37,311 bases of DNA from Thermoplasmatota archaeon (GTDB lineage: Archaea; Thermoplasmatota; Thermoplasmata; SG8-5; JACRNV01), in assembly GCA_040753455.1 (NCBI GenBank), contig JBFMEL010000002.1, forward strand, positions 1 to 37,311, in the 5' to 3' direction. Position numbers and translations under genes: made by a program. The notes beneath the pieces were generated by a model. The model ran no database searches. It was not told the DNA's origin and saw nothing but the letters and a program-made list of their open reading frames with translations. Of this stretch, positions 4,392 through 31,913 are shown piece by piece; positions within the stretch are counted from its first letter, which is position 1, and each line of letters opens with the position of its first letter.

Positions 4392-5774
4392 CTAAGTCTT
4401 ACGAACTGTTTGCTCCACGTCCCTCCAGTCCAGCAGGAGGAACAGGGGCGCAGGGATTGCCCATATATCCCCGAGGTCTTCCAGGAGGGACTTGGTGGCT
4501 ACCACCCCCTGTTCGATACCCTGCTTCCTCATGAACAGGCGCAGCTCCCGCAGCTCTCTGTCCTGCAGGCGCGCGGAGAACTTCACCTCCACCGGGAGGA
4601 GGGCGCGGGGATATCTGACGACGATGTCCACCTCGTTCTTGTGCTCGTCCCGCCAGAAATAGCAATCCGCTAACCTATGCAGGTGATTTCGTATCAGGGA
4701 TTCTACAAGCGGTCCGACCTCCTCGGGATGTGTAAACACATCGTCGCTCAGTGGGGCTAGGGCTGTTATCAGTCCAGTGTCGGTCAGGTACACTTTCCTC
4801 GATGTCCGAACCTGCTTTGCACGGCTCTTTGTGTAATTGTATGAGAAGTCCACCAGATACCCCTGCTCCAGGTAAGAGAGGTATTTGGATATAGTCTTCG
4901 GGCTGAGGTTCAGAGTCTGTGCGAGGTTCTGGGCCGTCATGAGCTTAGAACTCTGCCAGGCGAGAATTCGGAGCATCTCGACGAGGGTCTTTGGGCTTTC
5001 CACAGGAAAGTAGCGGGTCAGATCTCTCAAGACTGTTTTCTCGATAACATATGTCCAAATGTAATTGCGATGCTTATCCGGCGAAGTGTCACCGATAGCT
5101 AGCTCCGGAAATCCTCCATACAACAGGAAACGAGTGAACTCGTGCCAGATCGTCTCCCATATCCCAATAGTCTCTCTCCAAAACTGCTCGATATCTCCAA
5201 ACTTTACAGGGCGAACGGGCGCTGGCACGTTCACACCCCTGAAAGCCAGGAACTCCCTGAACGACAGCGGCCACACCATGAAGTCATAGGCGCGTCCTGC
5301 GAGGCTCTCCCTAGACCTGCGCTTTATCCAGAGACTGGAAGACCCAGTAACCACGAACTTCACATCCGGATGCAGGATGTCGTAATGTCTCTTCAGTATC
5401 GCCTGCCAGTAGTCCACGTTCTGGATCTCATCCAAGAAGATGTATTTCCTGTCCCCTCTGCTTCGTACCACCTGGTTTAGGTAATATTCGATAATCTCAT
5501 CGAGCACATCAGGCTCGGCACCCAGAAGCTCGTCGAAGGAGAAGTATAAAACACTTTTAGGGGATACCCCTGACCCTATAAGATGGGAAAGCAGGATCCT
5601 CAGCAAAGTAGTCTTTCCAGTTCTTCGCGGACCGATCAGGCAGAGAATCTGTCTCTCGTCCAGATATTGGAACACGCTTGCTTGAACTTCCCTCGAATAG
5701 TGCTCCCATTTCTGAGGTTGTCCGGACCAATGTGGATTGTAGGCGAATATCAAGCGCTCGCAGTTCGGATCCAT
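4392..5774 (-). CDS. AAA-type ATPase with C-terminal wHTH and PD-(D/E)xK-like module (AAA_14/DUF4143-like family)
   Basis: Walker A is GPRRTGKTTL and Walker B is IFLDEIQ. A central wHTH-like segment reads PKTISKYLSYLEQGYLV. The C-terminal EVDIVV...LLPVEVKFS matches the D..ExK nuclease-like signature. The stop codon is TAG. Confidence 0.75.
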   Translation of the reverse strand: MDPNCERLIFAYNPHWSGQPQKWEHYSREVQASVFQYLDERQILCLIGPRRTGKTTLLRILLSHLIGSGVSPKSVLYFSFDELLGAEPDVLDEIIEYYLNQVVRSRGDRKYIFLDEIQNVDYWQAILKRHYDILHPDVKFVVTGSSSLWIKRRSRESLAGRAYDFMVWPLSFREFLAFRGVNVPAPVRPVKFGDIEQFWRETIGIWETIWHEFTRFLLYGGFPELAIGDTSPDKHRNYIWTYVIEKTVLRDLTRYFPVESPKTLVEMLRILAWQSSKLMTAQNLAQTLNLSPKTISKYLSYLEQGYLVDFSYNYTKSRAKQVRTSRKVYLTDTGLITALAPLSDDVFTHPEEVGPLVESLIRNHLHRLADCYFWRDEHKNEVDIVVRYPRALLPVEVKFSARLQDRELRELRLFMRKQGIEQGVVATKSLLEDLGDIWAIPAPLFLLLDWRDVEQTVRKT

Positions 5775-5796
5775 GACCGCAGGATATGATTTGCAG

Positions 5797-5805
5797 TATT
5801 TATAA
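5797..5805 (-). promoter_or_regulatory. TATA-like box for the 4392-5774 ATPase gene
   Basis: The minus strand reads GTTATAAATAC 23-31 nt upstream of ATG 5774, within an AT-rich intergenic region. Confidence 0.4.
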
Positions 5806-5976
5806 CTTATTACTTACACTAAAATGCATTTTATAGGAAATATAAAGGGCACTAAACTGCAACGGATCGAGTTTTTTCAGGGGGAAAATAATTGAAGTGA
5901 TGTCTCCCCGTGGCTCGCTCACGACTCTGCGGACACTTTGTGCCACGCCTCAGCCCTCTGGTAAATTAGCAGGAAC

Positions 5977-7191
5977 CTACGTAATGTCAGATACATCCCA
6001 AACTGTCATGCCATCCACTTGGATTTTTTCTTTGTCCGGGACGAACAGCACAGCCTTCACTTCCTTGAGCCTTGAGAGCGCCTGCGCTGCTTTGAAGAGA
6101 TCCGATTTTGTGACAGCGCCCCACTTGATCTCTATCGCCAGTGCTGGTCTCTTGAACCTGAGCATCAGGATGTCCACATCGAAATCCTTTTCCTCGACCA
6201 TGACCGCGGTCAACCCCATCCTCTGCGCAAGGAAATCCCTCAAAGAGTCCTCCACAAGCCTCGGCATAAGATCGTCTATTATCCTGGCGATCTCCGCATT
6301 CCCCGGCGTGCGCTCGGAGATGTGATACTTCTCATCCGCGTAGTAGAACAGCTTGGCTAAAGGGGAGGCGTGTTTGTAGACGACCCTTTTCTTGCCGTGC
6401 ACGCGGATCTTCTTTATCAGTCCGAACTCCACCATGTTGCGGAGATACTGGCTCAAAAGGCTCGGGTCGTCCTTCTTTATCAGTTTGTTTGAGAACAAAT
6501 GGCTGGATATCTCCCCTGACTTCTCCTTGCCGTTCGCTATCGCCCTGAGGATCCCCTCGTACACCGCCGAAACGCTCCGCTCCTCTTCAGTGAAGACCTC
6601 GCCAACGAGCGCGGGCACGGTCCTGACCGAACCCAGCACGATCCTAGCTAAGATATCCCTTGGATTCTCTTTTTTCTCGAAATAGTCTATTGCCAGCGGC
6701 TCCCTGAGTATGACCGAGAATTCCACGAGCTCTTTCTTGCCGAGGTCGTACTTGGACAGTGCCCTCAGGCAGTCCTCCATGGATATGAGTCCTACAGGGA
6801 CCTCGGTGAAGAGCCCCAGCAGTGAAGAGCGGCTGGACAACAGGCGCTTGGAAAGGTACAGGGTCGAAGTGATGAGTATCAGCTTCCCTCCCTTCTCTGT
6901 CTGGTGCAAGAGATCGAAGAAATCGTCACCGAGGCGCTGGAACTCGTCCACCACCACAGTCTTGTCATCAGCAAGGGCGCGTGTGAGCACCGATAGGAAC
7001 GCGTCGTAGGTCAGCGTTTTGCCGTCCTTCTTGGAAACTATCCCCCTGTCACGCCTCACGAAGAAGAACTCGTCGTACTCTGCGAACCGCTCCACAAGGA
7101 AGGTCTTCCCTGTCTTGCGCCGCCCATAGACGAGGACCCATTTCTTCGACTGGATGATGCGCTTCAGCTCATCGGGTCTTTCTATAATCAT
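5977..7191 (-). CDS. Archaeal ATPase family protein (Arch_ATPase/DUF234-like) with PD-(D/E)xK-like C-terminus
   Basis: Walker A is YGRRKTGKTFL and Walker B is VVVDEFQ. The C-terminal DVDILMLRFKRPALAIEIKWG matches the D..ExK signature. The stop codon is TAG. Confidence 0.75.
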   Translation of the reverse strand: MIIERPDELKRIIQSKKWVLVYGRRKTGKTFLVERFAEYDEFFFVRRDRGIVSKKDGKTLTYDAFLSVLTRALADDKTVVVDEFQRLGDDFFDLLHQTEKGGKLILITSTLYLSKRLLSSRSSLLGLFTEVPVGLISMEDCLRALSKYDLGKKELVEFSVILREPLAIDYFEKKENPRDILARIVLGSVRTVPALVGEVFTEEERSVSAVYEGILRAIANGKEKSGEISSHLFSNKLIKKDDPSLLSQYLRNMVEFGLIKKIRVHGKKRVVYKHASPLAKLFYYADEKYHISERTPGNAEIARIIDDLMPRLVEDSLRDFLAQRMGLTAVMVEEKDFDVDILMLRFKRPALAIEIKWGAVTKSDLFKAAQALSRLKEVKAVLFVPDKEKIQVDGMTVWDVSDIT

Positions 7192-7212
7192 GGTTAGTAT
7201 AATGGTGGTTAT

Positions 7213-7222
7213 AGTAAATAAA
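7213..7222 (-). promoter_or_regulatory. TATA-like box for the 5977-7191 ATPase gene
   Basis: The minus strand reads CCTTTATTTACTAT about 24-31 nt upstream of ATG 7191. Confidence 0.35.
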
Positions 7223-7348
7223 GGTTATCCTATGCTCTTCTGAGACAGGGTGCAGGTTTCGATCTCCAGTGCTTCAAGAAGCGGATGGTGGACAAGAGGA
7301 TGGGTGCTGGCTGAGGAGATGGGGCACATCATCGGTGCGCTCGAAGGC

Positions 7349-9733
7349 TCATATGAAGTCCTCCAGGGTGGGGGCTTTCGTGGCTCTTTTCACCCCTCCT
7401 TCCTTCTTCTCTGCGGTGCCTTTCCGCTCCTTGAACCTTCCGCTGAAGAGTGCTGCCTGCTGTGTGCCGCTCATCAGGTCTTTCACGTCCCAGCCATAGA
7501 GGTCTGTCACCCTGGCCAGGGTCATCGCTGTCCTGCGCGCATAGTACTCATAGTCTGGGGTGTAGGTGAAGGGTCTGCCGCTCACGTAGGGCTCGACCTC
7601 TTGAGGGGTCTTGCGCCCGTCCACCACGATCCATGAGACCTTCATCCCGGGCACGAACTCGTAGCCCAGCTTCATCAACTTCTTCGCAGCCTGGACTGTC
7701 ACCTGTGATCCCGCGTCCTTATACGCCTTGAACTCCCGACAGGTGCGTGAGACGACCAGCTTTTCCAGTGCTACCTTGCCCTCTGCGCAGTCGCGCACCG
7801 CGCTCTTCGCAGCATCCACAGCGCCCTGCGGATCGTTGCTCAGTATCCTTTCGAATACGATGTCCAAGCTTTCACTCTGATAATCAAAGGCGTCCGTGCG
7901 CCTGGTCTCGTACCCCCTCACCACTACGGTCTCCTCTGGCCAGACCACGCGCCCCACGTACCTCTTCTTCACCCCGTGGGAGAACATGGGGTTGAGCAGG
8001 CGCTCGAATTCCAGCACGGCTCCTTCCTTAGAGTAGCGCTTGGAGAGCGCTTTTCCGAACTCCACGGAACCGTCCAGGGTCTCCGCTGGCGACTGCACGA
8101 AAACAGAATCCGTGTCCCCGTAGACGACCTTCAGACCTTCGCTCTCCAGCTGGGCGATGATCCCTGTGGTGTGCTCCCTGGCGAAGGTGGTGATGCTCTC
8201 CCCTATCTTCGGGTTCGTGAAGCGGTAGAACGCGGATGCGAAGACCCCATAGAAGGCGTTCATCAGCGTCTTTATGGCGTTCTGCAGCCCGTCATAGTAG
8301 CGGCGTTCTTCCTCGCTCCTCGCAGCGCGCATCTTTGCCTTCGTCTCGTCCCTCCATACCATCAGCTCCCTGAGTATCTTAGGGAGTATCCCTCCATGCA
8401 CATCGGGTGAGAGGAACCTGACACCGATCGGGCTCTCGATGCTCCCCTCCTTGTCGAGGGTCGTGAAGCAGATGTTCTTCGCGATGATGAGGTTCGGATA
8501 CATGCTCCTGAAATCCAGCACGATGACCCATGGGTATATGCCGGGTTCGATGCTGTGCACATATCCACCCTCGATCTGCTTCGTGCGCTTCTCGTGCCGC
8601 ATCATAGGCACGGCAACCCCCTGCCTGTCAGCCTCCCTGATCAGGATGGAGTCTATGAGCGTGGAGGTGCGGCCGTTGAGCACATCGTCCAGCGGCAGCT
8701 TTGACACCGTAGCAAGGTCCATGGCTTTCTCGAGCACCGCGATGCGCTCCAGTATCCTGAGGGAGAGCTCGGCGTCCTTGATGCAGTACTCGATCACCCT
8801 CTCCCTGCTGCGCGCCCATTCCTCGTCGATGTTCGATGGGTCGATCTCCCCCTTCCCCTCGCCCAGCACCTGCTTTGCCACAGCATCCAGCGTCTCCTGC
8901 TTTGGTCTCAGCTCCATCTTCGCGGACCACCAGGCATCGGCAAAGATGCGGCCGTGGGCGCGCCAGAACCGCTCCCCTGCTGATCTCACCTCCCCGCCGT
9001 CCCTTGCCAGTCTCAACCCCTTGATCTTGTGATGCTCTGCACGCTTCAGGAGGATCGGGATGTCATAGCCGTCTATGTTGTAGCCTGTGATTATGTCTGG
9101 ATCTTCCTTGCGCACCAGGGTCTCGAACCACTCGATGATCTCCTTCTCCTCCCCCTCCATATGATAGGTGCGCATCTCGCCGCTTGCATCCTTGACCACT
9201 ATCCCCAGGGTGAGGATATGCCCGTCCTTGATGCTGTTCTCGATATCGAAGCTCAGGATCTTGAGGGCGGGTTTGAACGCGTCAATGTTCTCAAAACCCT
9301 CTGCCTCCACTGTGATCTCCGTGGCATATGAACCATGTTCCACCTCCCTGCCCTTGACGCGCACGCAGCCGCCGAGGTCCATATCATAATAGAACCTCTG
9401 GGCAAAGGGTATGTCTGCCGCTAGGAACTCCCGCTCCCTGTACATCTCCCTGTAGCTAGGCACCTTCCAGGGACTGCGCAAGGTGACCTTCGTGCACCTC
9501 TTCATCTCCCTGTTCTTGGGGATATGCACCTCCCGGAGATCAAGGATCTCTGGATCGTTCCCCAGGCGCTTCAGGATCCCCTCGCCTGGCTCGACGATAT
9601 AGAAGTATGGTTTGAAGCCGTGGTAGAGGATGGTGATGCTCCTGCCTTCCCTTGTCCTGCCGAAAAGCTGCACCGTGACATCCTCGTCCTTCGTGTACGA
9701 GGCGCTCAGCACCCTGACGTCCCATGTGTCCAT
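7349..9733 (-). CDS. polB: Family B DNA polymerase
   Basis: All conserved motifs are present: Exo I LSFDIEN, Exo II GYNIDGYDIP, Exo III YCIKDAEL, Pol A DFRSMYPNLI, Pol B KTLMNAFYG and Pol C VYGDTDS. The 794-aa length suggests no intein. Confidence 0.95.
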   Translation of the reverse strand: MDTWDVRVLSASYTKDEDVTVQLFGRTREGRSITILYHGFKPYFYIVEPGEGILKRLGNDPEILDLREVHIPKNREMKRCTKVTLRSPWKVPSYREMYREREFLAADIPFAQRFYYDMDLGGCVRVKGREVEHGSYATEITVEAEGFENIDAFKPALKILSFDIENSIKDGHILTLGIVVKDASGEMRTYHMEGEEKEIIEWFETLVRKEDPDIITGYNIDGYDIPILLKRAEHHKIKGLRLARDGGEVRSAGERFWRAHGRIFADAWWSAKMELRPKQETLDAVAKQVLGEGKGEIDPSNIDEEWARSRERVIEYCIKDAELSLRILERIAVLEKAMDLATVSKLPLDDVLNGRTSTLIDSILIREADRQGVAVPMMRHEKRTKQIEGGYVHSIEPGIYPWVIVLDFRSMYPNLIIAKNICFTTLDKEGSIESPIGVRFLSPDVHGGILPKILRELMVWRDETKAKMRAARSEEERRYYDGLQNAIKTLMNAFYGVFASAFYRFTNPKIGESITTFAREHTTGIIAQLESEGLKVVYGDTDSVFVQSPAETLDGSVEFGKALSKRYSKEGAVLEFERLLNPMFSHGVKKRYVGRVVWPEETVVVRGYETRRTDAFDYQSESLDIVFERILSNDPQGAVDAAKSAVRDCAEGKVALEKLVVSRTCREFKAYKDAGSQVTVQAAKKLMKLGYEFVPGMKVSWIVVDGRKTPQEVEPYVSGRPFTYTPDYEYYARRTAMTLARVTDLYGWDVKDLMSGTQQAALFSGRFKERKGTAEKKEGGVKRATKAPTLEDFI

Positions 9734-10100
9734 CGCCAGCCCCTATGGGGTTCAAGCATCTAAAGCCTTACTGCCGTGCGTGGAGGGTGGTGTATGCACC
9801 TTCCACGGTGTCTCACCACCCGCCCGAGCGAGCGGTCCAGAAGTGGTGGGGGGTGTGGTATAGCGAGCGAAAGGTTGCGACACCCACCAGCGATGTTGGC
9901 TTGACACATCCCGAGCTTTGCATCGTAGCGAATGCCCAGATATTGGGAACGGGACCACAGGAGCAGTCTGAGGTCCAACGCAAGGACGGGGTCTTAGATT
10001 TTATATAGGAGCAGCTCTATAGCGTAGCCTATGAAATGGGCGATTCGGAACAGTCACTTAGGGATGAGCGTTTGAAAGCAAAGGCTGGAGGCATGAATGT

Positions 10101-10667
10101 ATGCCAGTCGCTATAAACGAAATAAAAGCACAATTATCTAGATTAGGGGATTTGAGTTGGGAACAAAATAATTTTAAAAAAGAGTTCGCTTATTTACCTG
10201 AAGTTATACAACAAGGGGAAATAATCCAAGCCATTGCAAGCGGTGCCTGGAATGGCAAATTAAGTATTATTGTTGTCACTCAGAGACGGGTATTGTTCAT
10301 TTATAAAGGCATATTGTACGGATTAGAACAATCTGAATGCCCCATGCGAGAAATTAGTAAAATACATCATAAAATAGGTCTTATAGCTGGTGAGATTCAA
10401 ATATCTACATCTGGTGGAAATTTATTATTTACTAATATTCCTAAACATAAAGTACCTGGCTTAGTAAGGACCCTTGAGCAACTTATACATGATTCGGAGA
10501 AGACGAATATAGTGGCAACACCATCATTTCAATCCTCTACAGCCCCAACGACAGTTCGAGAAAAAGAAACGATAATTAAAGAAATAGTCTATATTAGGTG
10601 TAGCCACTGTGGAAGTTTATCTAATCAAACTGATAAGAAATGTTCTAATTGTGGTGCATCACTATAA
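10101..10667 (+). CDS. Bacterial-type PH (YokE-like) domain protein with C-terminal zinc ribbon
   Basis: The core GEIIQAIASGAWNGKLSIIVVTQRRVLFIYKG...EISKIHHKIGLIAGEIQIS resembles bPH/YokE-like PH domains. The C-terminus CSHCGS...CSNCG forms a Cx2C-x12-Cx2C ribbon. GGAGG lies 8 nt upstream of the ATG. The gene sits in an AT-rich island. Confidence 0.55.
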   Translation: MPVAINEIKAQLSRLGDLSWEQNNFKKEFAYLPEVIQQGEIIQAIASGAWNGKLSIIVVTQRRVLFIYKGILYGLEQSECPMREISKIHHKIGLIAGEIQISTSGGNLLFTNIPKHKVPGLVRTLEQLIHDSEKTNIVATPSFQSSTAPTTVREKETIIKEIVYIRCSHCGSLSNQTDKKCSNCGASL

Positions 10668-10797
10668 TCGCCAGGTTTGAATTACCCCTCTTTGTGATTG
10701 TTGCAAGGAATTCGAAAAATGACTGCCTATAGATCGCGCATGTCAAAAATCTTGATAGGAATGAGTTATTCAAAGTCCTCTTAACTGGAGAAAGGTT

Positions 10798-11319
10798 ATG
10801 GCTCATAAAATTACAGTGAAAAAAACTAACAAAGAGGAAACACTACCTGAAATCTCACTGGCTGAACTCAATAGGCACCTGGATGTGCCTGTTGCGCCTG
10901 AGAAACCAGATTCAAAAAAGGAGATTATTATTCTCTTCGTCTTAATACTGGTTATCGTCGGTTTGATTGCTATACCTTTATTGATTAACCTATCTGATAA
11001 CACTGATGGCGAGGGAGGAATCCAACAACCCCAACCTCAGCCGAGTAATGTCCGCTATATTGAAATTGAGGTAAATTACACTGGGCATTGGTCAGGTTCT
11101 ATTCTGGTGGGAACAGATTATTCAAGTTTTGATAGTTATGGATATCAACGAGCAGGATTAAATCTCACAAAAGGCACTGTTTGTTCTTTCTCAGCTCAAA
11201 AAATGGAGGGAGGATATGACAAATTAGAGTTACGAATTTACTCTGATGGTAAACAAATAAAATATGCTTTTACTAATTCAGAATATGGTATAGCAAGTGT
11301 TGCGTGGATAGTAGAATAA
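10798..11319 (+). CDS. Hypothetical single-pass membrane protein
   Basis: A 173-aa ORF with one TM helix (IIILFVLILVIVGLIAIPLLI) followed by a beta-rich ectodomain. I recognise no family. It lies in the AT-rich island. Confidence 0.5.
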   Translation: MAHKITVKKTNKEETLPEISLAELNRHLDVPVAPEKPDSKKEIIILFVLILVIVGLIAIPLLINLSDNTDGEGGIQQPQPQPSNVRYIEIEVNYTGHWSGSILVGTDYSSFDSYGYQRAGLNLTKGTVCSFSAQKMEGGYDKLELRIYSDGKQIKYAFTNSEYGIASVAWIVE

Positions 11320-11485
11320 TATTGTAGCCTTCTGAGCTTGTAGAGAACGACCAGCGTAGGGACGCAAAGTTAGAGGGGGATGAGAGCAAGAGCAATCTCC
11401 TGTCAAAAAGGCACATCTCCGATACTCCATAGGGGGCGCATTTTTAAATTCACACAGTGATGTGGTTAGCGCATAGGGTATTGCG

Positions 11486-12364
11486 ATGGCTGCGATGCAC
11501 GATGCAGTAGAGAGGCACGGGCAGTTCGCCGTGGCTGTGGCTATAGTCTCAGTTTCCACCTCATCCATACTGATCCGCTGGTCTGCTTCCGGACCCCTGA
11601 CCATCGCCTTCTACAGGCTGCTGTTCACTACATGTCTCCTGCTACCCTGGGTCGCTGCTCATAACATGGGGGAGATTCGCGCCATCGACCGCGGCACCCT
11701 TGCAAGGCTGGCAGGAGTGGGCTTGGTCCTCGCAGCGCACTTCTCGCTCTGGGTGACCTCTCTGGGATACACGAGCGTGGCGAACAGTGTAGTGCTTGTC
11801 ACGATCCATCCCCTCTTTGTGGCAGCGATATCAAGGATCCTCCTGAGGGAGCACACGGGCAGATGGGCGTTGGCTGGTGGTATGCTGGCATCGGCAGGTG
11901 TGGTGGTCATGTTTATAGGGGGCTTCAGCCTGGGAACATGGCTCGGAGACCTCCTCGCCTTGGGAGGAGCGGTCGCCGCGGGAACATACATCGTTGCAGG
12001 GAGGTCAGAGCGTAGGAGGATGTCCACTGGTGCATACTGCTTAGGGGTGTATGGGTTCACCACTCTGTTCCTCGCACCCATGGCATACCTTGAGTCAGGG
12101 CTGGTGCCAGAGACTCCCGGGGACTGGTATCTATTCCTGGCAATGGCGGCAGTGCCTGGGATCATGGGACACACAATGTACAATTATGCCCTGGGAAGGG
12201 TGAGCGCGTTCTTCGTATCCACATCCCTCTTGGGTGAGCCTATCATCTCCTCGGTATTGGCTTGGCTGCTGCTCAGCGAGGTGCCCGGCCCCCTGACGTT
12301 CTTGGGCGCGCCCTTAGTGATGATGGGGATCATCCTATCGGCATGCAGAGCAGATCGGGATTGA
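11486..12364 (+). CDS. EamA/DMT-superfamily transporter
   Basis: A 292-aa protein with about 10 hydrophobic helices and a two-fold internal repeat typical of EamA domains. Confidence 0.75.
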   Translation: MAAMHDAVERHGQFAVAVAIVSVSTSSILIRWSASGPLTIAFYRLLFTTCLLLPWVAAHNMGEIRAIDRGTLARLAGVGLVLAAHFSLWVTSLGYTSVANSVVLVTIHPLFVAAISRILLREHTGRWALAGGMLASAGVVVMFIGGFSLGTWLGDLLALGGAVAAGTYIVAGRSERRRMSTGAYCLGVYGFTTLFLAPMAYLESGLVPETPGDWYLFLAMAAVPGIMGHTMYNYALGRVSAFFVSTSLLGEPIISSVLAWLLLSEVPGPLTFLGAPLVMMGIILSACRADRD

Positions 12365-19218: not shown

Positions 19219-19929
19219 TCATCTCAGGAAGGACAGCGGGTTCGTGTCCAGCCTCACCACCGCCCTCTCTGCGCCCTGATCCACCTCCACGAAGAGCAGC
19301 CCTTTCTTTCTGCGTCTCATCACGGGCATCACGCCGTCCCTGCGCAGGAGTGACAGCATGCTCTGTTTAAACCCATCAGCCCTCTCTGCGTAGAAGCGGA
19401 TCATCGCCTCCAGTTCCATGGACTGGGTGTAATATGTTTCCCCGCGAGCTCGCTGTGCCTCCACGAATCCATGGGCTTCCAGGCGCCTCATCACGAGGGC
19501 TGCCGCCTGCTGTGATATTTTCATCTCTTGGATGGCTGCACTCTGCCTTACCTTGCCAACCCTCACCACCATGAGGAGCGCCTGTCTTGCCTTCTCCTCT
19601 GCTAACAGCGCGAACCGCTCGCGGTCCGATGGAGCGATCATCTCCAGCACGAAGTAGCGCTGCGAGCGCCCGTATGCGAAGCTGTTGAGATACTCCATCT
19701 CCCCAAGGAGGCGCAGGTGCCGTGCAGCAGACGGTGCGCTCAACCCCACTGCCCTGCCTGTCACGCGCTGGGAGCTGCAGGGGCGCATGGTGAGATGAGA
19801 AAATATCTCCATTCTATCTCTGGACATGAGCAGCGATCTTTTCCCCTCTCCCCTGGTCACAGCCCTCTTGAAGAGATGGTCATGTCCAAACGCTGTCCTG
19901 AGCGCAGTGCCGAGGGTTCTTTTCTTCAT
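19219..19929 (-). CDS. Double winged-helix (ArsR/MarR-like) DNA-binding protein
   Basis: There are two wHTH-like units: RMEIFSHLTMRPCSSQRVTGRAVGLSAPSAARHLRLLGEMEYL and RQSAAIQEMKISQQAAALVMRRLEAHGFV. Its ATG overlaps the GTPase stop (ATGA). Confidence 0.6.
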   Translation of the reverse strand: MKKRTLGTALRTAFGHDHLFKRAVTRGEGKRSLLMSRDRMEIFSHLTMRPCSSQRVTGRAVGLSAPSAARHLRLLGEMEYLNSFAYGRSQRYFVLEMIAPSDRERFALLAEEKARQALLMVVRVGKVRQSAAIQEMKISQQAAALVMRRLEAHGFVEAQRARGETYYTQSMELEAMIRFYAERADGFKQSMLSLLRRDGVMPVMRRRKKGLLFVEVDQGAERAVVRLDTNPLSFLR

Positions 19930-20510
19930 TCCACTACCCTTCGTCCGATCTCCTCGAAGGCTTGCTCGACATTCAGCCCTGTCTTGGCGCTGGTGAGGTA
20001 GTAGGGCATGCCGAGCCTGCGCGAGATCTTGTCTATGGCATCCTCCCCGAAATCGTACTGCTCCACGAGATCAGCCTTGTTCACCACCAGCACCATTGGA
20101 ATCTCCCCTGCCTCCTCCTTCATCGCCTCGACCCAGCTGCGCAGGCTCAGCATCGTGGATTCCCTCGTGAAGTCGCAGACCACCAGTGCCCCTGAGGCTC
20201 CTTGATAATACAATCTGTGAACGCTCTCGAACCTCACCTGTCCTGCGATATCATGGATCATCATCGTCAGGTGCACGGGCGTGCCCTCCCTCTTTCTGGT
20301 CTCGAGCACCTTCTTCGTCACCTTCGCGCCTATGGTCTCCAGGTACTTGTCCCGAAAATCATCGTACACGTACCTGCGGATGAGCGAGGTCTTGCCCACT
20401 GCTCCATCGCCCACCATACAGACCTTTTTGATGATGCCGCGCATGCGCCTCGATCGCCGATATGCGAGATCCATATATAAATTCCAGGGTTCACTGCGCC
20501 ATGAGGTCAC
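19926..20510 (-). CDS. Ras-superfamily small GTPase (Rab/Ras-like)
   Basis: All five G boxes are present: G1 GDGAVGKTS, switch I Thr in YLETIGAKV, G3 DIAGQ, G4 NKAD, G5 TSAK. It also has the Rab-like YYQGASGALVVCD. There is no C-terminal Cys for lipidation. The longest ORF starts at GTG 20510 (GTGA overlap with the upstream gene). ATG alternatives are at 20474 and 20444; the latter has GAGG upstream and gives MRGIIKKVCMVGDG. Confidence 0.85.
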   Translation of the reverse strand: MTSWRSEPWNLYMDLAYRRSRRMRGIIKKVCMVGDGAVGKTSLIRRYVYDDFRDKYLETIGAKVTKKVLETRKREGTPVHLTMMIHDIAGQVRFESVHRLYYQGASGALVVCDFTRESTMLSLRSWVEAMKEEAGEIPMVLVVNKADLVEQYDFGEDAIDKISRRLGMPYYLTSAKTGLNVEQAFEEIGRRVVE

Positions 20511-21664
20511 AGGAGCCTTTTCTCCCCTTCGATCCTCTTGATCTCAGTGATGTCCTGTGTCACCTCTAAGCAGCCGATGTACTCGCCCTTCCTGCGCACC
20601 GCGAAGTACCTGATATGTATCAGCCGTCCCTTCATCTCCAGCCAGAACTCAGCGACATCGCGCTTGCCGCTCCTGAACTCCCCCAGTATCTGATTCACCA
20701 GATGCACGCTCTTCTGCGGATGACAGTTCTGGACCTTGCGTCCTATCACGGCTTTGGTCCTGGGAAAGATCCGCTCCTTGGACTGGTTGAAGTACCTCAC
20801 CGTGTCCTCGCTGTCCACGAAGGTGATGTCCACAGGCAGGGTATCGAGCAGCGCCTCCACCTCTTCCTTTGAAAGGGCACCGGTTTCCATCCGCACCGCC
20901 CCTTCCTGAGCAGCATCACCCCTTTCCTTTTCATACCTGGGCTGCTCGGGTGTGAAGCAGCAGTATCCGATCTCATCGAACCCTTCTCTGATCTCCCTCC
21001 ATTCATGTGCTGGGATGACCTGCAGCGCCGTTGGGAAGAGGATCTTGTTCTCCTTCGTGAAGTGGCTCGAGAGGCTCTCTGACAGGCTGATGGCAATCTC
21101 CCGCAGCGTTTTCGAGATCTCGCTTCGTGCCCTTTGCTCCCCGACCAGCTGATACAAGGACTTCTTCACCAGCCGTATGCTGTCGTGCTCCATCCACATG
21201 ATCTTTGGGGGCTGCGTCACCCCATGCCTCTCCAGGTATGGGAAGAGCACGTTCTCCTCGCGCAGGTAATGGCTCTCAGATTCCTTGAAATGTTCCACTA
21301 TGTGGGCGAGGTGATCCGCGTCATAGTCCTCCCCTTTTGCGAGCTCCTGGAGCTTGGCTGCGAACTCCAGCATGATCCTGTGCTCCTCCATAAGGGTGTG
21401 AACTGGGTGTCCTGGGGGAGCCAGTGCTGTCTCCTTTTCGAGCGCCTCCTTGAACAGCGATAGATGAACGTCGCACAGGCTGCGAATCTCCTCCGCAGGC
21501 AGCCCTTCATTGATCAGCTCCTCCTCGATCCTTGCTATGTCCGCAGGGGTGGCGTCCTTCACCACCTCCTTGAACTCTGCCTTCACCTTCTCGATGCTGG
21601 CACCCTCGTGCAGCATCCTAATCATCCTCTTCATCGCCTCTTTCTTATCAGGCATGCCGCTCAT
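20507..21664 (-). CDS. DUF438 / hemerythrin-like / PAS-domain sensor protein
   Basis: The N-terminus LHEGASIEKVKAEFKEVVKDATPADIARIEEELINEG is DUF438-like. The central H/E-rich helices (LMEEHRIMLEF, HYLREENVLFPYLERHG, MWMEHD) are hemerythrin-like. The C-terminus ITFVDSEDTVRYFN...RKVQNCHP is PAS-like. Confidence 0.7.
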   Translation of the reverse strand: MSGMPDKKEAMKRMIRMLHEGASIEKVKAEFKEVVKDATPADIARIEEELINEGLPAEEIRSLCDVHLSLFKEALEKETALAPPGHPVHTLMEEHRIMLEFAAKLQELAKGEDYDADHLAHIVEHFKESESHYLREENVLFPYLERHGVTQPPKIMWMEHDSIRLVKKSLYQLVGEQRARSEISKTLREIAISLSESLSSHFTKENKILFPTALQVIPAHEWREIREGFDEIGYCCFTPEQPRYEKERGDAAQEGAVRMETGALSKEEVEALLDTLPVDITFVDSEDTVRYFNQSKERIFPRTKAVIGRKVQNCHPQKSVHLVNQILGEFRSGKRDVAEFWLEMKGRLIHIRYFAVRRKGEYIGCLEVTQDITEIKRIEGEKRLL

Positions 21665-29999: not shown

Positions 30000-31913
30000 A
30001 TGGATTATCACGATGCCCTGCGGTACATCTACGGGCTTCAATATCTAGGGGTGAAGTTCGGGCTGGAGAACACGCTCGAGCTCCTGCGCCGTCTGGGCAA
30101 TCCCCACCAGAGGTACATGAGCGTGCATGTGGCAGGCACCAACGGCAAGGGCTCTGTGTGCGCCTTCATCGAACGTGTGTTGCGGGAGGCTGGGTTTCGC
30201 ACAGGGCTCTACACCTCTCCGCACCTCATCGATTACACGGAGCGCATGCAGGTCAACGGAGTACCAGCAGGAAGGGAGGAGATCGCCACGCTCTTCGAGG
30301 AGGTTAAAGGGCATATCGAGGAGATGCGCCCTGATATGCGATGCACCTTCTTCGAGACCACGACAGCCCTTGCGTTCAGGTATTTCGAGGAGAAGGGCGT
30401 GGAGATAGCGGTCGTCGAGACAGGGATGGGGGGGAGATTGGATTCCACGAACGTGATCATGCCTAAGGTGGCGGTGATTACTGATATAGGGATGGAGCAC
30501 ACCAAGCACCTGGGTTCCACGATATCGCAGATCGCGCGCGAGAAGGCGGGGATCATAAAACCAGGGGTGGATGCGGTCACCTCCGAGCAGGAGGAGGGTG
30601 CAATGACCGAGCTCTCCATGAGGGCGAGAGGTTGCGGCAGCACGCTGTACGCCCTCGGAAAGGAGTTCGATGCGGAGCGCATGTCTGTGAAGGACAGGGG
30701 GCAGCGATTATTATACAAAGGGCTATATGATAATATGACGATAGAGATCAGGCTTCTGGGAAAACATCAGGTAAGGAACGCTGCCGTTGCGCTCTGCGCG
30801 CTCGAACTTTTGAGAGAGGGTGGATTGAAGATATCGGGCCGGGCGATCAAGGGGGGGATGAAGATGGCGAAATGGCCTGCACGCCTTCAGATCATCAGGC
30901 GCAGTCCGGTGATCGTGATCGACGGGGCGCACAACCCTGCAGGTGCCGGGGCGCTCGCGGATAGCTGGGATGAGGTCTTCAGAGATCGAAGGGTCTTCGT
31001 TGTGATGGGTATCCTTGCAGACAAGGATTGCATGAGCACTGCCGCTCCACTGGTGGACAGGGCATGCGAGCTCATAGCCACCGCACCGAGGAATGAAAGG
31101 GCGCTGGCTGCATCTCGTTTTGCAGAGGTTGTGGGTGCAAGGGAATATCATGACTGCTCTGCGGATGCGATCATCGCTGCGCTGCGCAAAGCGAAAAATA
31201 GGGATGCGGTGTTAGTGGTCGGTTCGCTCTATCTTGCGGGGGAAGCCTTGTTCTTCTTCAGCGCGCTGCCCCCTGATCCGAGCGAGGTGTGCAGCAGGCT
31301 GAGAGCCGAGTACGATGTGGGAGGGGAGGAGAGGGGGGAGCGGGACCCGTTTCACGTGCTGGTCGCTACGATCCTCTCGCACCGGACGAAGGACGAGCAC
31401 ACCCATAGGGCGGCGGAGGCGCTGCTGGAGCGCTATCCCACGCCAGGGCAGCTCGCATCTGCACCCCATGAGGATATAGAGCATCTGATCCGTCCGGCAG
31501 GGTTCTACAGGGTAAAGGCGAGGTATCTCAAGGATGCGGCTAAGAAGATTGTGGAGGAGTTTGGAGGAGCCGTGCCTGGAGATATAAACAAACTGATGAG
31601 CATCCCCGCAGTCGGTCGAAAGACCGCAAACTGCGTGTTGGTCTATGGCTTTGGCATGCCTGCGATCCCTGTGGATGTGCACGTGCATCGCGTCTCGAAC
31701 AGGCTGGGGCTCGTGAGCACCACCCATCCCCATGACACAGAAGAAAGGCTCAGCGCCCTCGTGCCCAGGCAGTACTGGATCGAGATCAATCGCCTGATGG
31801 TGCGCCATGGTCAGGAGACGTGCCATCCTCTAAGGCCCAGATGCCCTGTCTGCGTGCTGCGCGATCTCTGCATGCACTGGCGTAGAACCTTTTCAGCCCC
31901 TACATCGTTGTGA
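30000..31913 (+). CDS. Fusion protein: folylpolyglutamate synthase/dihydrofolate synthase-like Mur ligase (N-terminal) + endonuclease III HhH-GPD DNA glycosylase (C-terminal)
   Basis: The N-terminal part has VAGTNGKGS (P-loop), the Mur-ligase middle domain and GSLYLAGEA at about 31221-31250. The C-terminal part starts at 31344 with DPFHVLVATILSHRTKD, the HhH motif IPAVGRKTANCVL (catalytic Lys), VDVHVHRVSNRLG (Asp) and the 4Fe-4S motif CHPLRPRCPVCVLRDLC (C-x6-C-x2-C-x5-C). A single uninterrupted frame of 637 codons covers both. Confidence 0.8.
   Translation: MDYHDALRYIYGLQYLGVKFGLENTLELLRRLGNPHQRYMSVHVAGTNGKGSVCAFIERVLREAGFRTGLYTSPHLIDYTERMQVNGVPAGREEIATLFEEVKGHIEEMRPDMRCTFFETTTALAFRYFEEKGVEIAVVETGMGGRLDSTNVIMPKVAVITDIGMEHTKHLGSTISQIAREKAGIIKPGVDAVTSEQEEGAMTELSMRARGCGSTLYALGKEFDAERMSVKDRGQRLLYKGLYDNMTIEIRLLGKHQVRNAAVALCALELLREGGLKISGRAIKGGMKMAKWPARLQIIRRSPVIVIDGAHNPAGAGALADSWDEVFRDRRVFVVMGILADKDCMSTAAPLVDRACELIATAPRNERALAASRFAEVVGAREYHDCSADAIIAALRKAKNRDAVLVVGSLYLAGEALFFFSALPPDPSEVCSRLRAEYDVGGEERGERDPFHVLVATILSHRTKDEHTHRAAEALLERYPTPGQLASAPHEDIEHLIRPAGFYRVKARYLKDAAKKIVEEFGGAVPGDINKLMSIPAVGRKTANCVLVYGFGMPAIPVDVHVHRVSNRLGLVSTTHPHDTEERLSALVPRQYWIEINRLMVRHGQETCHPLRPRCPVCVLRDLCMHWRRTFSAPTSL

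Follow-up and report, generated by a model that had tools for sequence, protein, structure and literature searches.

Genomic organization of the GTPase and double winged-helix genes

In a 37,311-nt stretch of DNA from a Thermoplasmatota archaeon (assembly GCA_040753455.1; contig JBFMEL010000002.1, positions 1-37,311), hereafter called the window, we analysed a gene for a Rab-like small GTPase and the gene for a double winged-helix (dWH) protein directly downstream of it. Both are encoded on the minus strand, the GTPase at 19926-20444 (172 amino acids (aa) plus stop) and the dWH protein at 19219-19929 (236 aa; isoelectric point (pI) 10.9). The stop codon of the GTPase overlaps the start codon of the dWH gene in an ATGA at 19926-19929 (-), and the two genes are probably translationally coupled through this overlap. 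A third gene on the same strand (20507-21664, 385 aa), coding for a PF0695-like sensor, precedes them. Its stop codon (20507) is separated from the GTPase ATG (20444) by a spacer of 62 nt (20445-20506, minus strand). An earlier note on this DNA had described three consecutive minus-strand genes, a distance of 62 nt between sensor and GTPase, and the overlap of the GTPase stop with the dWH start. All three open reading frames (ORFs), the spacing and the overlap are present in the sequence as it gave them.

The mechanical ORF of the GTPase extends to a GTG start (19926-20510, 194 aa). Judged by its homologues, translation truly starts at the ATG at 20444 (172 aa), because the homologous proteins measure 171-176 aa and their conservation starts at R-x-x-IKK. 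The GTG at 20510, which would couple the gene to the sensor stop, was ruled out by the length of the homologues, by the lack of conservation of the resulting extension and by a candidate TATA box (described below) inside this extension.

Sequence and predicted structure of the Rab-like GTPase

A Pfam search assigned the GTPase to the Ras superfamily (Ras, PF00071: E = 9e-38, 129.8 bits with a cut-off of 21.6; Roc: E = 1e-30). Its translation contains G1 GDGAVGKT (20388-20411), G2 threonine (T) 37 (20334-20336), G3 DIAGQ (20238-20252), G4 NKAD (20070-20081) and G5 SAK (19983-19991), all on the minus strand. An alignment of 33 sequences showed that the key residues of G1 to G5, including the glutamine of G3, are invariant, and the GTPase looks catalytically competent by this measure. 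The C-terminus reads EEIGRRVVE and the last 80 residues are free of cysteine; neither a prenylation motif nor a hypervariable tail is present. Five canonical G boxes, a true DxxGQ instead of the TxxGQ of MglA-type GTPases and the absence of a lipidation cysteine had all been predicted in the earlier note, and each is borne out by the translation, which gives DIAGQ at G3 and ends in RRVVE.

By sequence, the top match in the PDB was the Asgard 'Thorarchaeota Rab' (PDB: 7ezb; 1.4e-28), followed by Rab23, Rab21 and Ypt7. An AlphaFold2 (AF2) model of the GTPase (predicted local distance difference test (pLDDT) 86.7) had only eukaryotic Rabs among its best 50 Foldseek matches in the PDB, with a template modelling (TM) score of ~0.83. 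The best 60 PDB sequence matches and the best 50 Foldseek matches are all Rab, Ypt or Sec4 proteins, together with the Thorarchaeota Rab, the sequence matches being mostly eukaryotic, and the Rab-like segments YYxGA and TIG occur in the GTPase. Because a C-terminal cysteine and prenylation tail are missing from its sequence, the protein should be called Rab-like rather than a Rab in the strict eukaryotic sense.

Membership of the MglA family was ruled out by the DIAGQ motif in G3 and the lack of a Roadblock/MglB hit. The Pfam scan of the window, where the GTPase is neighboured by the dWH protein, the sensor and peptidases, detected no Roadblock/MglB protein, and none was found among the conserved neighbour types annotated in related loci, in agreement with the earlier view that the usual partner of prokaryotic small GTPases is replaced at this locus.

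The GTPase family comprises 6,467 proteins at E<=1e-10, some of which are named 'Rab family GTPase [Thermoplasmata archaeon]' by NCBI. The genome collection held 581 confirmed relatives, and the best 80 of these 581 loci come nearly all from metagenome-assembled genomes (MAGs) labelled Methanomassiliicoccales, Thermoplasmata, Poseidoniia or 'Methanobacteriota'. Three of the 80 (L016, L072 and L083) come from MAGs with bacterial labels (Omnitrophota, Anaerolineaceae and Chloroflexota), which could reflect mis-binning or horizontal transfer of an archaeal GTPase.

Domain topology of the dWH protein

The AF2 model of the dWH protein (pLDDT 92.5; predicted TM score (pTM) 0.84) displayed two helix-helix-helix-hairpin units typical of the winged-helix fold, confirming the two winged-helix domains that had been proposed for the downstream protein. 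A conserved N-terminal tail modelled with low confidence (residues 1-30; 19840-19929) is followed by the first winged-helix domain, WH1 (33-94; 19648-19833), the second, WH2 (100-169; 19423-19632), a long helix (171-198) and a three-stranded sheet (203-228), the last two being encoded at 19246-19419 (all minus strand).

A profile built from 60 dWH sequences matched ArsR/SmtB, MarR and Lrs14-type regulators in the PDB; the best E-value was 6e-11, reached by a small putative DNA-binding protein, and ArsR itself scored 1e-8. Distant members of the family exceed the Pfam cut-offs of HTH_24, HTH_20, HTH_5 and MarR. In Foldseek searches, single dWH domains matched the ArsR-type proteins HlyU and NolR at a TM score of ~0.65, and the whole chain matched the tandem winged-helix proteins RPC62, ScpB, ESCRT-II EAP30 and TFIIIC at low scores of 0.15-0.30. 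Motifs resembling a recognition helix (WHL..L and QQ) are conserved in the dWH alignment. The clade of dWH proteins paired with the GTPase has one conserved cysteine, C51, and no metal-site or CxxC motif was recognised in the dWH protein. From its sequence profile and model, the dWH protein looks like a putative DNA-binding regulator. A scan of the three ORFs with NCBIfam added nothing specific.

An exhaustive hidden Markov model (HMM) search put the size of the dWH family at 1,737 representatives with a cut-off of E<=1e-3 and at 221 clusters with E<=1e-10, nearly all of them 230-260 aa long and matching end to end. A word-indexed search had given just two relatives, but with 221 or more clusters the dWH protein is no orphan. 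A defence-system reading was also rejected: PADLOC returned generic winged helix-turn-helix (wHTH; Csa3) matches for the dWH protein; the GTPase and the sensor gave none.

Conservation of the GTPase-dWH pair

The dWH gene lies directly 3' of the GTPase gene in ten distinct loci (the window, L001, L002/L003, L004, L005, L006, L009, L011, L092 and L093/L094), which stem from Thermoplasmatota-type MAGs and metagenomes and have different flanking genes in each case. Both close dWH homologues of the indexed search (L001 and L002/L003) are positioned directly 3' of an orthologous GTPase, and among the 80 genome loci gathered by GTPase the dWH gene follows directly in L004, L005, L006, L009 and L011. 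The distance between the two genes ranges from -19 to +43 nt, with a 4-bp overlap in six loci (the window, L001, L002, L004, L006 and L093). Across the pairs both ORFs are intact, showing 47-70% identical aa with the window for the GTPase and 25-60% for the dWH protein. Because it recurs in ten distinct loci with unrelated flanks, the adjacency of the two genes is more than chance; the survey for a GTPase-wHTH pairing that had been suggested earlier therefore found the pairing conserved.

Phylogenetic analysis gave a corresponding picture for both partners. A neighbour-joining tree was built for the GTPase domains of 112 Thermoplasmatota relatives, with H-Ras as single outgroup; in it, the paired GTPases form one clade, nested among clades with other downstream partners. 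The GTPase-linked dWH proteins likewise form one clade of ~19 representative clusters in a neighbour-joining tree of the dWH family. From the position in the dWH tree, a neighbouring GTPase was predicted for two members whose genomic context was not known beforehand (P0143 and P0135), and both proved to be encoded directly 3' of a Ras-family GTPase (L092 and L093/L094). Pairwise identities of the GTPases rise and fall with those of the dWH proteins (36 locus pairs, Pearson r = 0.91; the locus pairs are non-independent, and the value is descriptive only). Just three positions stand out between dWH-paired and other GTPases. One of them, glutamate (E) 73 in switch II, is found in 90% of the paired GTPases vs 3% of the others, a suggestive but weak hint in the alignment of partner-specific recognition.

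In L001 (2-247), the GTPase fragment 5' of the closest dWH homologue displayed an in-frame loss of ~32 residues between G3 and G4, where GASGALV is joined directly to NKADL; either the copy is degenerate or the Logan contig was misassembled here.

Probable exchange of partners with KaiC-like ATPases and V4R-DUF835 proteins

Outside of the GTPase-linked clade, dWH genes were found 3' of a gene for a ~290-aa KaiC-like ATPase (PF06745) in four distinct loci (L085, L086/L087, L088 and L096/L097; gaps of 1-113 nt) and 3' of a gene for a CobA/CobO/BtuR-type P-loop protein in one (L095:22-910; gap of 37 nt); a peptidase M29 gene in the same position is the single exception, to which we return below. 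Two more dWH genes, on short contigs, are left out of this count. The Methanomassiliicoccales MAG CSMAG_1135 (DAOVGM01) contains both a KaiC-dWH pair (L096:2520-4116) and a GTPase-dWH pair (L006:5992-7232), and the two module types coexist there as paralogues.

The closest sister GTPases of the paired clade have a second type of partner. In the sampled loci, 48 of 114 GTPase ORFs directly precede a protein matching a V4R-DUF835 model, and Pfam analysis of full-length partners (~310-370 aa) revealed DUF835 in seven of seven and V4R in six of seven. TRAPP is a guanine nucleotide exchange factor (GEF) for Rabs. V4R has been proposed as the ancestor of the TRAPP subunit Bet3 (PMC2253512), and DUF835 has been classed as an inactivated KaiC-like domain (PMC5847659). 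Because both halves of the window pair have relatives wired to KaiC-type proteins, partner exchange within one archaeal signalling toolkit is the simplest reading of these gene neighbourhoods.

Loci of the V4R (PF02830)-DUF835 type are L012, L014 (for example 5055-7496), L018, L032, L034, L036, L039, L041, L043, L046-L048, L052, L056-L058, L064, L067, L073, L074, L077, L078 and L081. A second GTPase of ~275-290 aa with a C-terminal extension is often encoded 5', resulting in a three-gene module. In Poseidoniia-type (MGII/III) MAGs, a conserved 149-aa protein is encoded 14-17 nt 3' of the GTPase (L013, L020, L022-L026, L033, L037, L038, L040 and L042; example L022:2-999); it gives no more than a weak match to the V4R-DUF835 model, in the N-terminal, V4R-like part (Pfam V4R E = 0.009). 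In some Thermoplasmata MAGs, three or four paralogous genes for Rab-like GTPases are lined up in tandem on the same strand (L053:4026-6519, L055:2095-4545, L070:4069-6519 and L076:4407-6519).

The sensor gene and the probable promoter of the pair

The protein encoded upstream has a three-domain architecture of DUF438 (4e-24), Hemerythrin (3e-18) and PAS_10 (1e-29), all above Pfam thresholds, and has a homologue along its entire length in PF0695, an uncharacterised protein of P. furiosus (PDB: 3cax; 2e-57). The earlier note had recognised it as a hemerythrin/PAS protein, which the Pfam domains confirm, and had joined all three genes to a cassette, which the comparison with related loci and the sequence of the spacer do not support. 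A phmmer search against all ORFs of 83 related loci, including all other paired loci sampled at that point, revealed no sensor homologue within ~6 kb of the GTPase besides the window copy, which places the sensor outside of the conserved unit. The genes 5' of the GTPase in the relatives are unrelated and often divergent: L002-L004 have a divergent adenylosuccinate synthetase gene (purA) in this position, and other loci a primase or other unrelated genes.

A TATA box driving an mRNA with a short leader is the geometry expected of archaeal promoters. The spacer between sensor and GTPase contains a candidate archaeal TATA box, TTTATATA, at 20474-20481 (-), 30 nt 5' of the GTPase ATG. This sequence occurs twice in the 37-kb window, with 0.16 occurrences expected, and inspection of printed sequences by eye revealed A/T-rich TATA-like elements at a similar distance 5' of the GTPase in relatives. 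The GTPase-dWH pair probably has its own promoter, for which TTTATATA is the candidate; the position of a rare TATA box inside the spacer argues for transcription of the pair separately from the sensor. The second copy in the window is located at 10000-10007 (+), ~94 nt 5' of an ORF coding for a bacterial-PH/zinc-ribbon protein (10101-10667).

Comparison with known systems

Makarova, Galperin and Koonin reportedly proposed in 2017 a KaiC 'signal transduction hub' network in archaea (cited in PMC5847659), to which we assign the KaiC-dWH pairs; the window pair looks like a regulator module of this network. The KaiC-dWH pairs resemble the window pair in having a dWH protein of the same family, with ~235-260 aa and the same architecture, and in their gene order with the NTPase first, often at a distance of 1-4 nt. 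They differ in the NTPase, which is a ~290-aa ATPase of the RecA/KaiC fold, likely acting as a hexameric ATPase or autokinase, whereas the 172-aa Ras-superfamily GTPase of the window is likely a monomeric GTP/GDP switch. The window dWH gene is situated directly 3' of a P-loop NTPase gene, as in the NTPase-dWH modules, and the NTPase has a Ras fold instead of the KaiC/RecA fold; by sequence, the pair is a variant of the KaiC-type NTPase-dWH module and not a strict member. Because the dWH family normally partners KaiC-like ATPases, the pair belongs to a known type of archaeal NTPase-regulator module and is not a wholly new pathway.

The modules of GTPase and V4R-DUF835 protein contain the same GTPase family (44-55% identity) with an adjacent downstream partner, and the dWH-paired clade is nested among them. 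Their partner, in contrast, combines small-molecule-binding V4R with an inactivated KaiC and lacks a winged helix, and they often include a second, longer GTPase.

For group 3 MglA proteins, a GTPase-wHTH link and a role in transcription regulation were proposed on computational grounds (Wuichet and Sogaard-Andersen 2015, PMC4316618). These are also prokaryotic small GTPases encoded beside a predicted wHTH protein. However, they are MglA-family GTPases accompanied by one or two MglB (Roadblock) genes and by a partner with a REC-like domain and a single wHTH, whereas the window encodes a Rab-like GTPase with DxxGQ and a protein with two wHTH domains and no REC-like domain, and no MglB was identified. 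The same study defines the MglA and Rup families, and no transcription-linked context was found there for Rup. Compared by definition, our GTPase fits the operational description of Rup (Ras superfamily GTPases of unknown function in prokaryotes: Ras-like, outside of MglA, without MglB), but neither of the two described Rup groups shares the GTPase-dWH gene context.

Eukaryotic Rabs and the Thorarchaeota Rab 7ezb provide the best sequence and structure matches of the GTPase and share with it the canonical G1-G5 motifs, the catalytic glutamine and the YYxGA and TIG segments. The window GTPase differs from them by having no prenylation cysteine, hypervariable tail or membrane-traffic neighbours and by forming an operon with a DNA-binding-type protein. 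The dWH protein, in turn, resembles ArsR/SmtB regulators and the two-wHTH regulators SurR (PF0095; PDB: 2qlz) and Phr (PDB: 2p4w): both of its winged-helix domains match ArsR/SmtB profiles and its size is near that of SurR. In contrast to SurR and Phr, it is distinguished by its domain order, a distinctive C-terminal helix-sheet domain, its linkage to NTPase genes and the absence of a recognised metal site or CxxC motif.

The pathway had been regarded as undescribed in the earlier note. In a limited literature search we found no description of an operon of a Rab-like GTPase and a double-wHTH protein, and to this extent the statement holds. It does not hold for the components, since Rab-like proteins in Thermoplasmatales and Aciduliprofundum have been reported, without context analysis (PMC4915359), and for group 3 MglA systems a connection of small GTPase and wHTH protein has been proposed computationally (PMC4316618).

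A proposed GTPase switch for the dWH protein

We favour, at slightly better than an even chance, the interpretation that the two genes form an operon in which the nucleotide state of the Rab-like GTPase switches the dWH transcription factor, as a variant of the archaeal module of P-loop NTPase and dWH protein. Transcribed from its own promoter, the two-gene operon would supply the GTPase and the basic ArsR/MarR-like dWH protein in fixed proportion. With its intact catalytic glutamine, the monomeric GTPase would cycle as a GTP/GDP switch and bind the dWH protein depending on whether it carries GTP or GDP, and control would run from the GTPase to its partner: binding may alter the DNA binding or the oligomeric state of the dWH protein and thereby the transcription of its target genes, perhaps with its own operon among them. 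In evolution, the Rab-like GTPase would have taken the slot of a KaiC-like ATPase in one Thermoplasmatota clade. That the GTPase directly gates an archaeal transcription factor through a dedicated dWH protein, a Ras-fold GTPase having been swapped into the slot of the KaiC-like ATPase, is a more specific proposal, which we put forward tentatively and at less than an even chance.

Several observations weigh against a GTPase-switched transcription factor. The window dWH protein itself stays under the Pfam cut-off for every HTH family (the best being HVO_A0261_N, 23 bits vs 35; MarR_2: 20 vs 27), and the tandem winged-helix fold is shared by non-DNA-binding proteins, among them ScpB and ESCRT-II. 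The GTPase promoter region contains no conserved operator-like repeat and no inverted repeat, with one direct repeat at chance level. No natural fusion of an NTPase with a dWH protein was found, the longer members of the dWH family carrying HTH domains alone, and no GEF, GTPase-activating protein (GAP) or sensor is conserved near the pair. The rule that a dWH gene follows an NTPase gene is not absolute, as an out-of-clade dWH gene is positioned 3' of a peptidase M29 gene at a gap of 1 nt (L091:870-2694). In addition, the trees were built by simple neighbour joining and carry no support values.

Among the alternatives, mere co-expression fares best, yet we regard it as unlikely. The dWH protein would then be an autoregulator of the usual kind, outside the control of the GTPase nucleotide state, and the GTPase would act on unrelated targets, for instance at the membrane, the cytoskeleton or the ribosome. 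Operons encoding their own repressor are common, sister GTPases have different partners (V4R-DUF835 proteins or other GTPases), and the interaction of GTPase and dWH protein is one that we infer. However, deeply diverged pairs, the KaiC-like versions included, retain the NTPase-first order and the tight overlap, the two partners co-diverge as single clades, and so consistent an association with P-loop NTPases is not what one would expect of a local autoregulator.

Somewhat less probable still is a dWH protein serving as a protein-protein module, either as a GAP, GEF or GDI-like regulator of the GTPase or as an effector scaffold, by analogy with ScpB, ESCRT-II and RPC62. The best whole-chain Foldseek matches (RPC62, ScpB, ESCRT-II EAP30 and TFIIIC) have such non-classical roles, the conserved N-terminal peptide and the C-terminal helix-sheet domain have no assigned role, and neither MglB nor another GAP was identified nearby. 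Yet these whole-chain matches have low TM scores compared with those of the single domains on ArsR, HlyU and NolR, the sequence profiles match DNA-binding ArsR/SmtB and MarR regulators, and the conserved recognition-helix-like motifs and the pI of 10.9 also argue against a scaffold.

A three-component pathway, in which the sensor detects O2, NO or iron and signals to the GTPase (by GEF or GAP activity or by binding) and the GTPase controls the dWH protein, has in its favour the co-oriented genes with just 62 nt between sensor and GTPase, genuine hemerythrin and PAS domains and a GTPase module with no other visible input, but is very improbable given a sensor homologue near the GTPase in 0 of 83 related loci, the purA, primase or other genes in its place, the rare TATA box pointing to a separate promoter, and the origin of the sensor from a stand-alone family including P. 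furiosus PF0695. Of the pathway from signal to GTPase to DNA-binding protein in the earlier note, the link between GTPase and winged-helix protein remains plausible, as the pair is conserved and probably coupled, whereas the sensor input loses its support with the non-conserved gene.

Other features of the window

Elsewhere in the window, a 637-aa ORF at 30000-31913 (+) is an unusual fusion in which an HhH-GPD base-excision glycosylase domain accompanies the middle and C-terminal domains of a Mur ligase. The region 9000-12000 has a G+C content of 44-47%, compared with 55-61% elsewhere, and may represent an island or an intergenic stretch rich in promoters. Two adjacent genes for AAA_14-type ATPases (4392-5774 and 5977-7191, both minus strand), one with DUF4143, are located beside a gene for a family B DNA polymerase (7349-9733).

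Implications for archaeal Rab-like GTPases

To our knowledge, archaeal Ras/Rab-like GTPases have hardly any assigned role in the cell, and they are usually treated just as forerunners of eukaryotic membrane traffic. If the dWH protein is switched by the GTPase as proposed here, this would be the first prokaryotic switch of this kind from a small GTPase to DNA, and Rab-like proteins outside of Asgard archaea and eukaryotes would serve the control of transcription instead of membrane traffic. The GTPase-dWH module is conserved and compact, consisting of two small soluble proteins, and would give a first function to one clade of archaeal Rab-like proteins. The pairing also shows that archaeal regulatory modules can swap their NTPase 'engine', a KaiC-like ATPase or a Ras-like GTPase, with the output protein unchanged, an exchange that bears on the wiring of the proposed KaiC-centred archaeal signalling network. 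For eukaryogenesis, the link between Rab-like GTPases and V4R outside of Asgard archaea may matter more, by way of the connection from V4R over Bet3 to TRAPP.

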